In this document: positions 2,485 through 48,166 of the stretch, one piece after another
Position numbering within the stretch: position 1 is the stretch's first letter
Layout of the letters: each line of letters begins with the position of its first letter
Source of the DNA: a candidate division WWE3 bacterium CSP1-7
Lineage (GTDB): Bacteria > Patescibacteriota > WWE3 > 9FT-COMBO-53-11
Reading direction: 5' to 3'
Length of the DNA stretch: 64,000 nucleotides
NCBI GenBank assembly: GCA_001443395.1
Contig: LDXK01000001.1
Coordinates: forward strand, 47,426 to 111,425
Program-made: the position numbers and the translations under genes
Notes under the pieces: generated by a model
The model's database searches: none
The model's input: only the letters and a program-made list of their open reading frames with translations
What the model was told of the DNA's origin: nothing

Positions 2485-3001
2485 AGCTGATAACTTTCTC
2501 TAGCTTCGATCCTAGCTTTTTGTCTTCCTCATCTGCAACGGCTTTCCCGAGAAATCCGGCTATCAAAAGCCGTTCGGCCTCCGCTTGGTCCAATCCCCGG
2601 CTTTTCAAGTAGAAGAGCTGTTCCTCGTCCACCCCCGAGGAGGTAGCCGCGTGAGAAGCCCGCACCTCGTCGGCTTCTATCTCGAGGTAAGGGAGAGCCT
2701 CGATCCGCGCCTCCTTCCCCAGAAGAAGCGTGCGTTCCTCCAGAAAATCGTCCGACCCCTGCGCCTTCTTTTTGATTTTGATTAGTCCGCTGACCCGGGC
2801 GGTGGCGCGGTCCCGAAGCACTCCCCTCACCGTGACCCGGCCTCTAGTTTTGGGAGCGGTGTGGATCGCGGAAACGTCCAGATCGATCCGGTCATCGCCT
2901 TTGCCGGCGAAAACGATGACCAATTCTTCTTCTTTCCCAACCCGGTTGAGACGCAGGACAATTTTTCGGCTTGTGTTACCAAAAATAGGAACAAGAATCA
3001 T
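2471..3001 (-). CDS. sufD: SufD-like Fe-S assembly protein, short form (C-terminal beta-helix portion only)
   Basis: C-terminal 'EEQLFYLKSRGL' SufB/SufD signature. The ATG at 3001 overlaps the sufB stop (ATGA). The upstream part of the longer ORF lies out of frame inside sufB and is low-complexity. Confidence 0.65.
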   Translation of the reverse strand: MILVPIFGNTSRKIVLRLNRVGKEEELVIVFAGKGDDRIDLDVSAIHTAPKTRGRVTVRGVLRDRATARVSGLIKIKKKAQGSDDFLEERTLLLGKEARIEALPYLEIEADEVRASHAATSSGVDEEQLFYLKSRGLDQAEAERLLIAGFLGKAVADEEDKKLGSKLEKVISYALD

Positions 3002-31860: not shown

Positions 31861-31890
31861 CAGTATTCTTCGCTAACGCTTCGAATACTG
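31861..31890. terminator. Hairpin CAGTATTC-(TTCGCTAACGCTTC)-GAATACTG at the 3' end of rpsI (candidate terminator; contains a GCGTTAGCG motif)
   Basis: 8-bp perfect stem in a convergent intergenic region. Confidence 0.35.
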
Positions 31891-45880: not shown

Positions 45881-46411
45881 TCATTGTTTTTTCTCCTCTT
45901 CCTTAACTTCTTCCTTCGAACTCTCGGTTCCCGGCGCGGCTTTTTCCGCCGGCGGAATCTCGCTCTCCGTTACGGTCTCGCCGGGTTCGTAAAATATCGT
46001 TAGATTACTCAGCCGCGGGCCGGGAAGAGCTCCCGAGATCCTGGCGATTTTCTTCTCGGTATCCACCTCCACCACCGATAATCCCGGCACCGTCACCTGC
46101 TCCCCACCCATGCGGCCGGCCATCCGCTTGCCGCGATAGACTCGGCCGGGAGTGGTTGTGCCGCCGATCGAACCTGGAGCGCGCCCCTTGGTCGAGCGGC
46201 CGTGGGTTGCCGGCATTCCTGCAAAACCGTGGCGCTTCATCACTCCGGCAAAGCCCTTTCCCTTGGACGTTCCCACCACTCTAACGGGCGTCCCGGGGGT
46301 AAAATCGGCCGGAATCTCCGTCAGCGAAACCGCGGTCACAGGAACAACTCTCCCGTCGGGCGAGAAAACCTGACCCATATCCAATTTTCGAGCTTCGATT
46401 TTGTTAGTCAC
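45881..46411 (-). CDS. rplC: 50S ribosomal protein L3 (GTG start)
   Basis: '[21 protein letters not shown]'. GTG start abuts an upstream hairpin/U-tract. Confidence 0.85.
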
Positions 46412-46442
46412 AAAAAAAGCCGCTGCTCAAGCGGCCAAAAAG
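46412..46442 (-). terminator. Attenuator-like intrinsic terminator hairpin (GCCGC-TTGAGCA-GCGGC + U7) directly abutting the rplC GTG start, at the end of a ~120-nt leader
   Basis: On the minus strand, a 5-bp GC stem with a 7-nt loop, A-run upstream and TTTTTTT immediately 5' of GTG. Confidence 0.5.
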
Positions 46443-46538
46443 TCAGCGAGTTATTAGCACTAGCCAGCCGTATCCCGAGAACCCGCCTGCCGACTGCTGT
46501 CTGCTGTCTTTGTGAAACGCTTGGGCATTAACGAAGAG

Positions 46539-46567
46539 ATAATAACAGAAGAAATCAAGCTTAGCAA
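46539..46567 (-). promoter_or_regulatory. Sigma70-like promoter for the rplC-led operon (-35 TTGCTA, 17 nt spacer, -10 TATTAT) inside the 218-nt rpsJ-rplC spacer
   Basis: Hexamers read on the minus strand with an exact 17-nt spacer. Confidence 0.45.
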
Positions 46568-46629
46568 CAGTGAGGATCATTTTCGAGTAAAACGAGAAAA
46601 GAGGGTTGGTGAGCCCTTAGCGAACCGCC

Positions 46630-46938
46630 CTACATCTTCACCTCTACCCCGACGCCGGCGGGGAGATCGAGGTTGGAGAGTTCATCAATGGTTTTGGGGG
46701 TGGGTTCTTCGATATCGACCAGCCTTTTGTGCGTTAGGATTTCAAACGATTCGCGGGAACGCTTGTCGATGTGAGGGGAACGGATCACAGTAAAAATCTC
46801 CCGTTCTGTCGGGAGTGGGATGGGGCCTACGACCTTGGCGCCGGTGCGAATCGCCGCATCGACAATCTTCTCCGCGCTGCGGTCAATCACCCGGGCGTCG
46901 TAAGCTTTTAAACGAACTCTAATCCTTCCTTTTGGCAT
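46630..46938 (-). CDS. rpsJ: 30S ribosomal protein S10
   Basis: '[22 protein letters not shown]'. Confidence 0.9.
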
Positions 46939-46975
46939 GAAACGTGCTACTTACCCTAGTCGGCGGGAGATCAGG

Positions 46976-48166
46976 TTACTTGATAACCTTGGAAACGACT
47001 CCCGCTCCCACTGTGTGCCCTCCTTCGCGAATTGCGAAGCGCACACCCTCTTCGAGAGCAATCGGCTGAATCAGTTTTGCCGTAACTTTGACGTTGTCAC
47101 CCGGCATCACCATCTCCACCTCTTTGGGAAGAGTAACCTCGCCCGTTACATCGGTGGTCCGCAGGTAGAACTGCGGCCGATAGCCGGTGAAGAAAGGAGT
47201 GTGGCGCCCGCCTTCCTCTTTGGAGAGAACGTAGACCTCGGCCTCAAACTCGGTGTGGGGAGTAATCGAACCGGGAATCGCCACTACCTGACCGCGCTCG
47301 ATATCGTCCCGCTCAATTCCGCGGAGAAGAAGACCGACGTTGTCACCGGCCTGAGCTTCATCCAACGATTTGCGAAACATCTCTACTCCGGTCACGACCG
47401 TCTTTTTTGTATCCTTTAGACCGACCAACTCAACTTCATCGTTTACCTTGATCTTGCCACGATCGACGCGACCGGTCGCAACTGTTCCTCGGCCCTTGAT
47501 GGAGAAAACATCTTCCACCGGCATCAGGAAAGGTTTGTCCAGATCGCGTACCGGAGTGGGAATGTAGTCATCGACTGCTTTCATTAACTCTTCGATGCTC
47601 TTGAGAGCCTCGGCGTCACCGTCGAGGGCTTTCAAGGCGGAACCACGAATCACCGGAACTTTGTCACCCGGGTATTCGTACTTGCTCAGGAGCTCCCGAA
47701 CCTCAACCTCCACCAGGTCGATTAGCTCCTTGTCGTCAACCATGTCCACTTTGTTGATGAAAACGACAATCGCCGGCACGTTCACCTGGTGCGCCAAAAG
47801 AATGTGCTCCCGGGTTTGCGGCATCGGGCCGTCCGGAGCAGAAACAACCAAAATCGCCCCATCCATCTGAGCGGCGCCGGTGATCATATTCTTAATGTAG
47901 TCGGCGTGTCCCGGAGCGTCGATGTGAGCGTAGTGGCGCTTCTCGGTTTCGTATTCGACGTGAGAAATGTTAATGGTAATCCCACGTTCCTTTTCCTCGG
48001 GAGATTTGTCGATATCTTCAAACTTATAAAACTCCGACATCCCCTTGGTGGAAAGGTATTTGGTGATGGCCGCGGTAAGGGTGGTCTTCCCGTGGTCAAC
48101 GTGGCCGATTGTGCCCACGTTTACGTGGGGTTTGGTTCTTTCAAATTTCTTTGCTGCTTCTGCCAT
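46976..48166 (-). CDS. tuf: Elongation factor Tu
   Basis: '[10 protein letters not shown]', 'DAPGHADY' and 'NKVDMVDD'. Confidence 0.95.

Follow-up and report, generated by a model that had tools for sequence, protein, structure and literature searches.

A probable antiterminator/terminator attenuator, conserved in the WWE3 lineage, between the ribosomal protein genes rpsJ and rplC

The DNA considered here, hereafter the window, is a stretch of 64,000 nucleotides (nt) from contig LDXK01000001.1 of CSP1-7, an uncultured bacterium of the candidate division WWE3 (Katanobacteria), in which the genes of the ribosomal proteins S10 (rpsJ) and L3 (rplC), annotated with a spacer of 32 nt in E. coli, are held apart by 218 nt (46629-46412, on the minus strand, as are all the features of the window located below). 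This spacer contains a promoter motif, a short open reading frame (ORF) and a terminator-like hairpin that abuts rplC, and we propose with good confidence, from the comparison of related sequences, that it is a conserved, lineage-specific antiterminator/terminator attenuator of the rplC cluster. The rpsJ gene (46938-46630, stop codon TAG at 46632-46630) was taken from the ORF listing, and its homologues in the relatives carry PF00338. The rplC gene (46411-45881, 176 amino acids) was assigned by PF00297 and by its WWE3 homologues, the nearest named L3 homologues being those of assemblies called 'candidate division WWE3'. Its GTG at 46411 is the earliest start codon downstream of an in-frame TGA, and the resulting N-terminus can be aligned with those of the relatives, whose ATG lies 0-8 nt past the U-tract of the terminator. 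The gene leads a cluster of about 14 kb, from rplC to rpsI, which ends at 31873, of which the downstream genes were confirmed by Pfam and in which rplD (L4) is the second gene downstream of the leader.

The predicted promoter is of the sigma-70 type (46567-46539) and consists of a -35 box TTGCTA (46567-46562), 17 nt, and a -10 box TATTAT (46544-46539) preceded by the TG (46547-46546) of an extended -10; it scores 9 hexamer matches out of 12 in addition to the TG extension. Taken alone, this motif occurs at chance frequency (4 found versus 3.6 expected in 8 kb). From the transcription start that we infer at G46532, 7 nt past the -10 box, a leader RNA of about 121 nt would be made (46532-46412), ending with the U-tract of a predicted intrinsic terminator (46436-46412). 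The latter is composed of the 5' arm GGCCGC (46436-46431), the loop UUGAGCA (46430-46424), the 3' arm GCGGC (46423-46419) and seven U residues (46418-46412) which directly adjoin the GTG of rplC, and its stem of 6-7 pairs (5 of them G-C), its loop of 5-7 nt and its U7 are those of a Rho-independent terminator. The original prediction had claimed the 218-nt spacer, the TTGCTA-17-TATTAT promoter, a leader of about 120 nt and a hairpin followed by UUUUUUU directly 5' of the GTG. All of these are present, with the corrections that the 5' arm begins 102 nt, not about 110 nt, past the -10 box and that the stem can be drawn with 6-7 pairs. Perfect hairpins with a GC stem and a U-run number only two on both strands of the 64 kb, this terminator being one of them; the other lies at 19791-19779 (GCCAG-CCG-CUGGC followed by GAUUUUUU), and canonical intrinsic terminators seem rare in this genome.

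Between the promoter and the terminator are found the short ORF of 22 codons (MPKRFTKTADSSRQAGSRDTAG, 46528-46460, with its ATG at 46528-46526 and its TAG at 46462-46460), a segment hereafter named block A (UGCCCAAGCG, 46527-46518), which comprises the UG of the AUG and codons 2-4 of this short upstream ORF (uORF), and a central hairpin (46505-46456). In the RNAalifold consensus, the latter pairs AGCA (46505-46502) with UGCU (46459-46456) and CAGUC (46496-46492) with GGCUG (46469-46465), and its 5' strand includes the direct repeat GACAGCAGACAGCAG (46508-46494), which had already been noticed and is real.

Variants of this unit were collected from the DNA around L3 homologues and by one metagenome scan with a leader-derived pattern. 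Fourteen distinct variants were obtained, the window and 13 others, whose L3 proteins are 65-99% identical to that of the window, and in all of them the unit of promoter, leader and terminator stands immediately 5' of rplC. The promoter obeys in each of them the pattern TTGnnn, exactly 17 nt, TGn, TAnnAT, with different -35 hexamers (TTGCTA, TTGCCA, TTGAAC, TTGCGA, TTGATC) and a different upstream context. The terminator is kept in 14/14 variants and its U-tract always ends 0-8 nt ahead of the rplC start codon; the architecture of promoter, leader and terminator described by the original prediction is conserved across the WWE3 lineage. In six relatives, the nucleotide identity to the window is 82-98% for the leader versus 69-90% for rplC, and the leader is recovered by nhmmer with E-values of 1e-22 to 1e-50. 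A search by nhmmer for a second copy of the leader, in the window and in all the loci, returned solely copies upstream of rplC, one of them in the window. The gap between rpsJ and rplC is 165-330 nt in the relatives without inserted genes and 1-2.2 kb in six lineages where unrelated genes lie inside it; in these lineages the leader stays joined to rplC, and the similarity to the window breaks exactly upstream of the promoter. Known RNA families were not recognised: the Rfam scan of the window gave no match at gathering score, and a scan of 46100-47000 with Rfam 15 at E <= 10 gave two chance-level matches only (E = 3 and 3.8). Furthermore, the predicted stability does not exceed that of shuffled sequences (z = +1.5 for 236 nt and z = -1.1 for the 121-nt leader), so that fold stability alone is no evidence and the case is carried by conservation and covariation.

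The covariation concerns block A and the terminator. At minimum free energy, the 121-nt leader folds into a rod that pairs block A with CGCUUGAGCA (46433-46424), the 5' arm and the loop of the terminator; two mutually exclusive conserved helices share the terminator 5' arm, as is required of an antiterminator/terminator attenuator. In the alignment of 11 leader sequences, 90.6% of the cells of this antiterminator helix are paired, against 32-50% in slid controls, and 3 pairs are changed on both sides, a number reached by 5/500 shuffles. When block A and the terminator are aligned by themselves, in 11 variants including three distant ones, the corresponding values are 86.7% against 28-51%, with 8 cells changed on both sides (4/500 shuffles) and a covariation score that none of the 500 shuffles reaches. 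Codon 2 of the short ORF and the terminator loop indeed vary together, as CCC/GAG, UUU/AAA, UUU/AGA, CUU/AAG and GUU/AAC, and the duplexes of block A with its cognate terminator have a mean energy of -11.9 kcal/mol versus -9.9 kcal/mol for the non-cognate ones (permutation p = 0.0013). In the RNA lacking the 3' arm, the predicted fold puts block A on the terminator 5' arm in 14/14 variants, and in the full-length RNA the predicted energies of the terminator and antiterminator conformers lie 0-3 kcal/mol apart.

The short ORF overlaps the switch strand, since its codons 2-4 belong to the antiterminator, as expected of a leader-peptide attenuator. Its ATG is placed 10 nt past the -10 box in the window and 10-11 nt in most variants, which would make the transcript near-leaderless. 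This ATG is invariant in 14/14 variants, with both flanks varying, and the frame that it opens is uninterrupted in all of them, over lengths of 13, 15, 15, 22, 23 and 33 codons that differ by multiples of three, the 30-nt insertion of the variant L096 included. In the variants L102 and L114, which have different nucleotides at 17 of 48 positions, the frame is 15 codons long and closes with Lys-Pro-stop, and the similarity between the two ceases at the stop codon. In 13 of the 14 variants, 23-26 nt separate the stop codon from the terminator stem, and the intervening sequence is unalignable between the classes. The residues preceding the stop are A-G, P-G or K-P, and the peptides contain no codon runs that could serve as regulatory codons. 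A conserved micro-protein was considered and rejected, as the replacements at all codon positions and the three open frames give no signal of selection at the amino-acid level.

The geometry of the short ORF is not isolated in the window. The start of tuf (48166-46976) is built alike, with TTGACA-17-TAACAT, 11 nt and an ATG without a Shine-Dalgarno sequence (SD) (48206-48166), and promoter-like hexamers occur 7-9 nt before the ATG of other long genes (starts 29436, 24551 and 16493). Because of these similar spacings, initiation of the short-leader or leaderless type is plausible in this genome. The absence of an SD at rplC, also claimed in the original prediction, is true and common to tuf and rpsJ in the window; it was discarded as a peculiarity of rplC, as these and other genes are also without SD.

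The model that we propose starts from this anatomy, from its conservation, from the antiterminator complementarity with its compensatory changes and from the near-equal energies of the two conformers; what we infer from them is where transcription starts, that it does terminate, that the short ORF is translated and in which sense the leader responds. Block A would be made first, and the naked nascent RNA would fold into the antiterminator, so that the polymerase would read through into rplC, the U-rich region before its SD-less start being left single-stranded. If block A were occupied, the terminator would form and transcription would stop at 46412, or the hairpin would mask the rplC start; such an occlusion of the ribosome-loading site, already suggested before, is compatible with the anatomy, given the 0-8 nt between the U-tract and the start codon in all variants. 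The likeliest occupant of block A would be a ribosome, either as it initiates on the near-leaderless short ORF or as it translates it. Since the antiterminator pairs the U and the G of the AUG, antiterminator formation and initiation on the short ORF are mutually exclusive, and this exclusion favours the ribosome-at-start model together with the anatomy shared by all the variants: a promoter, an AUG followed by the antiterminator strand, an ORF whose stop codon lies about 25 nt ahead of the terminator, and an abutting U-tract. The element would then be a feedback sensor of translation-initiation capacity, acting negatively on ribosomal protein transcription. The attenuator probably governs the extent to which the 14-kb ribosomal protein operon is transcribed; that its sensor is a ribosome on the short ORF is a serious but tentative proposal; and that, as an occupancy sensor, it would let free initiation-competent ribosomes shut off about 25 downstream genes, most of them for ribosomal proteins, and a shortage of ribosomes turn them on is a possibility which we advance with still more reserve. 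The short ORF and the antiterminator complementarity, which are the two features that explain the locus best, were both missed by the original prediction.

Several observations weigh against this ribosome-sensing model. In L096 the ATG lies about 45 nt from the -10 box, without SD, and L115 has an additional strong distal promoter. The shuffle controls were run on 11-14 related sequences and hence overstate significance. As for translation, synonymous changes are not in excess in the short ORF, where replacements fall on every codon position, its KTADSS block is invariant at the nucleotide level without synonymous variation, and all three frames are open across the leader region of the window, so that the evidence for coding comes from the ATG, the indel lengths and the geometry. 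More fundamentally, a ribosome at the stop codon leaves block A uncovered; the model consequently needs a slow departure, a repeated loading, or the steric exclusion of a helix that would have to enclose the ribosome, and the conserved distance from the stop to the terminator and the Gly or Pro before the stop may be connected with this weak point. Finally, the ribosome model does not account for the CAG-repeat hairpin, which is invariant in the main clade and resembles a binding site.

This hairpin speaks for an autogenous attenuator, in which the switch would be the same and the sensor would be one of the ribosomal proteins encoded downstream, in its free form (by analogy L4, or else L3, L23 or L2), an explanation that we consider possible but less likely. 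The protein would bind the CAG-repeat hairpin, block A or both and favour the terminator, the ATG and its frame being incidental or secondary. In the main clade, the central hairpin pairs AGCA with UGCU and CAGYC with GGCUG below a variable apex, where L096 carries its 30-nt insertion; these pairs are 100% kept but invariant, and covariation is therefore uninformative either way. The GACAGCAG repeat is invariant within one clade and offers two pairing registers, with GGCUGGCUAGUGCU and with CGCUG; the shifted register, which in the window pairs with GCUG (46447-46444), is the one used in the minimum-free-energy rod. In 11/11 class-1 variants, AAAGACAGCAGACAGCAG and GGCUGGCUAGUGCU do not change by a single nucleotide and show no covariation, as is typical of a sequence-specific protein site. 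Precedents exist in the action of L4 on the S10 leader (PMC3616713), of L20 on the infC leader (PMC1865079) and of L10(L12)4 on the rplJL leader (PMC4538822), and rplD, the gene of L4, is close at hand as the second one downstream. The CAG-repeat hairpin is, however, missing from L102, L114 and L115, where other hairpins replace it and where the promoter, the ATG, the antiterminator and the terminator remain. Similarity to the 16S, 23S and 5S ribosomal RNAs (rRNA) of E. coli is at chance level (score 19 versus 20.1 +/- 2.3 for shuffles), as is that to the E. coli S10 leader (16 versus 15.1 +/- 2.0), and a sensing protein leaves the invariant ATG and the fixed distance from the stop to the terminator unexplained. 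A supposed likeness to the 5' end of 23S rRNA (GAUGCCC...GUGCUAAU) proved to be at chance level against the E. coli rRNAs and was dropped.

The leader could also be a static device, in which the promoter and a partly efficient terminator fix the ratio of rpsJ/tuf to rplC-cluster transcripts, block A merely weakening the terminator and nothing being sensed. The near-equal energies of the conformers would suit such a fixed partial read-through, and neither a ligand nor regulatory codons can be named; we nevertheless judge it improbable, for a fixed leak would need neither the conserved ATG, nor the stop-terminator distance, nor an invariant 50-nt hairpin, and the conservation of the leader above that of the neighbouring coding sequence denotes more constraint than a simple leaky terminator would be under. 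More improbable yet is an independent small gene for a small RNA of about 120 nt, for the 22-residue micro-protein or for both, with rplC depending on leakage through the terminator. Such a gene would have its own promoter, ATG, stop and terminator, and attenuator RNAs and leader peptides acting in trans are known in rnTrpL and peTrpL (PMC6614838, PMC7298713). The unit invariably stands directly before rplC, its U-tract ending 0-8 nt from the start codon, and so leaves no room for a separate rplC promoter; outside the blocks of invariant nucleotides the peptide is little conserved, its replacements being spread over all codon positions, and the covariation of block A with the terminator would be purposeless in a plain small-RNA gene. 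A small-molecule riboswitch, with the block A/terminator helix as its P1 stem and the central hairpin as its aptamer, is scarcely credible: a 5' strand pairing with the expression platform and enclosing a conserved hairpin recalls one, but nothing in Rfam matches beyond chance, even at E <= 10, the supposed aptamer is a plain hairpin, variable at its apex and substituted in L102, L114 and L115, and no plausible ligand presents itself for a ribosomal protein operon.

The comparison with known leaders places the attenuator in none of the families considered. The original prediction had likened it to the L4-regulated S10 leader of E. coli, in which L4 and NusA stabilise a pause at the hairpin HE and which is confined to Gammaproteobacteria (PMC3616713). 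The attenuator architecture stands, and the likeness is a functional one: in both cases an intrinsic terminator lies just upstream of the first gene of an L3-L4-L23-L2-S19... cluster, with the same genes except S10, and an action on both transcription and translation initiation is plausible here as well. The E. coli leader, in contrast, lies before rpsJ and not between rpsJ and rplC, whereas the WWE3 element carries a promoter of its own within the classical operon, as well as a short ORF and an antiterminator in which the leader 5' end takes part. When it is aligned locally with the 189 nt that precede rpsJ in E. coli, the score stays within the shuffle range given above, and no homologue of HD or HE was recognised in it; homology was therefore rejected, the shared part being the chance 8-mer GACAGCAG. 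With Rfam 15, the E. coli S10 leader itself (L118, NC_000913 3452200-3453700) gives no match at E <= 1; as no Rfam model exists for the classical L4 leader, the empty Rfam result cannot exclude membership of the L4 leaders.

The rplJL leader of B. subtilis resembles the WWE3 element in its ribosomal protein operon, in its mutually exclusive antiterminator and terminator and in the short ORF that it carries. In B. subtilis, L10(L12)4 recognises an rRNA-mimicking anti-antiterminator, and expression rises when the leader peptide is translated, presumably because Rho is blocked (PMC4538822). By comparison, neither an anti-antiterminator nor an rRNA mimic was found in the WWE3 leader, the rRNA compared being that of E. 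coli, and the overlap of its short ORF with the antiterminator strand predicts a response of the opposite sign. The trpL, pheL, hisL, erm and cat leaders share with it a short leader ORF and alternative hairpins between which the position of the ribosome decides. They differ in that the WWE3 antiterminator strand is at the first codons of the ORF and not near its stop, in that the WWE3 ORF is near-leaderless and has no runs of regulatory codons, and in that the target is a ribosomal protein operon; furthermore, in the absence of translation, read-through would be the default state here, as opposed to termination in trp. In the infC-rpmI-rplT leader of B. subtilis, L20 acts on attenuation by long-range pairing of the leader 5' end with the terminator region (PMC1865079), as in the pairing described here; that leader has a binding site mimicking 23S rRNA and no short ORF, and no match to the Rfam L20_leader model was found in the WWE3 leader. 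By position, by sequence and by Rfam model, the WWE3 element is thus a member of no leader family with which it was compared. Our literature searches brought up no account of ribosomal protein leaders from Patescibacteria or the candidate phyla radiation (CPR), and none of such an element before rplC.

The promoter and attenuator that precede rplC make it plausible that the rplC cluster is regulated separately from rpsJ, tuf and fusA. Read-through from upstream may also occur, because only a weak 4-bp hairpin follows rpsJ. This hairpin (AGGG-CUCACCAA-CCCU and then a U-rich run, 46617-46589), read from the sequence and the alignment directly after rpsJ, would at best be a leaky terminator. The core CACCAACCCUCUUU of its region (46629-46601) is common to the window and to L090/L091, and L094 has neither the motif nor the hairpin, its -35 box lying 4 nt past the rpsJ stop; the motif may act as a weak terminator of rpsJ or as an element of the UP type. 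L099 has a near-copy of the core, GCAACCCUCUUU, upstream of the promoter, where it shares with L090/L091 an additional 7-bp AU-rich hairpin (GCCGAUAAA...UUAUCGGC).

The genes inserted between rpsJ and the leader were located at 1503-2330 in L081, 325-2330 in L083, 802-1700 in L087 and 1277-2300 in L102, and others are present in L104, L109 and L114; in this lineage, the junction of rpsJ and rplC appears to be a hot spot of insertion. One of the inserted genes encodes a secreted or membrane-anchored protein of about 205 amino acids with the motif AGAESTF...WGWG, whose similarity to the SLT transglycosylases (E = 0.013) is below the Pfam cut-off. The L083 insertion additionally encodes a protein of 383 amino acids with a weak GH127-like match. 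Neither of these two proteins has a homologue in the window.

An L3 search of genome contigs returned mostly Actinobacteria, by way of universal motifs, and one useful locus, L008, from the distant, low-G+C WWE3 genome UBA1379. Its gap between rpsJ and rplC measures about 130 nt (2870-3000) and holds two hairpins with a U-run, one after rpsJ (ACUUCA-CC-UGAAGUUUUU) and one before rplC (CCGG-UGCG-CCGG-GUUAUUU), while neither a block A nor a short ORF can be recognised. The separation of rpsJ from rplC may be older than the leader described here. L3 itself is short, with 176 amino acids in the window and 140-200 in its WWE3 homologues, compared with 209 in E. coli; its tail is acidic and lysine-rich, and the L3 proteins of the non-WWE3 loci that were compared have longer N-terminal regions.

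Upstream of rpsJ, the gap that follows tuf measures 37 nt and has no structure comparable to the rpsJ-rplC leader. The fusA gene (50485-48344) is separated from tuf by 177 nt (48343-48167), in which a perfect 22-nt direct repeat, GAGCGTTAGCGAGAAGCCTTAT, occurs at 48333-48312 and at 48287-48266, and in which an apparent relic of the last 18 or so codons of fusA (EKVPENVAQKIISGGKQG) just precedes the tuf promoter. The hexamers TTGACA-17-TAACAT of that promoter are also present within the 3' end of fusA (48445-48417). The repeat and the relic suggest that DNA was long ago inserted or duplicated where fusA ends.

In conclusion, our observations bring forward a probable regulatory element that breaks up the classical S10 operon at an uncommon point and whose conservation exceeds that of the surrounding genes. 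To our knowledge, almost nothing has been established, a few model phyla apart, on how the synthesis of ribosomal proteins is regulated. The ribosomal protein regulatory RNAs of E. coli, for their part, are mostly confined to Gammaproteobacteria (PMC3616713). The anatomy of the WWE3 leader gives clear predictions for the mutation of block A (CCCAAGCG to GGGUUCGC), for the compensatory mutations of the loop and for the loss of the AUG. If the sensor were a ribosomal protein, the leader would represent a new class of the L4 or L3 type, in which the binding hairpin is unusually invariant. If it were the short ORF, as in the model that we propose, ribosome homeostasis would be achieved by translation-coupled attenuation rather than by the binding of a ribosomal protein, and the leader would provide indirect evidence for initiation of the leaderless type in the SD-poor genomes of the CPR. 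A reduced-genome bacterium of the CPR would then exert a direct negative feedback on the synthesis of its ribosomes without any recognition of RNA by a ribosomal protein.

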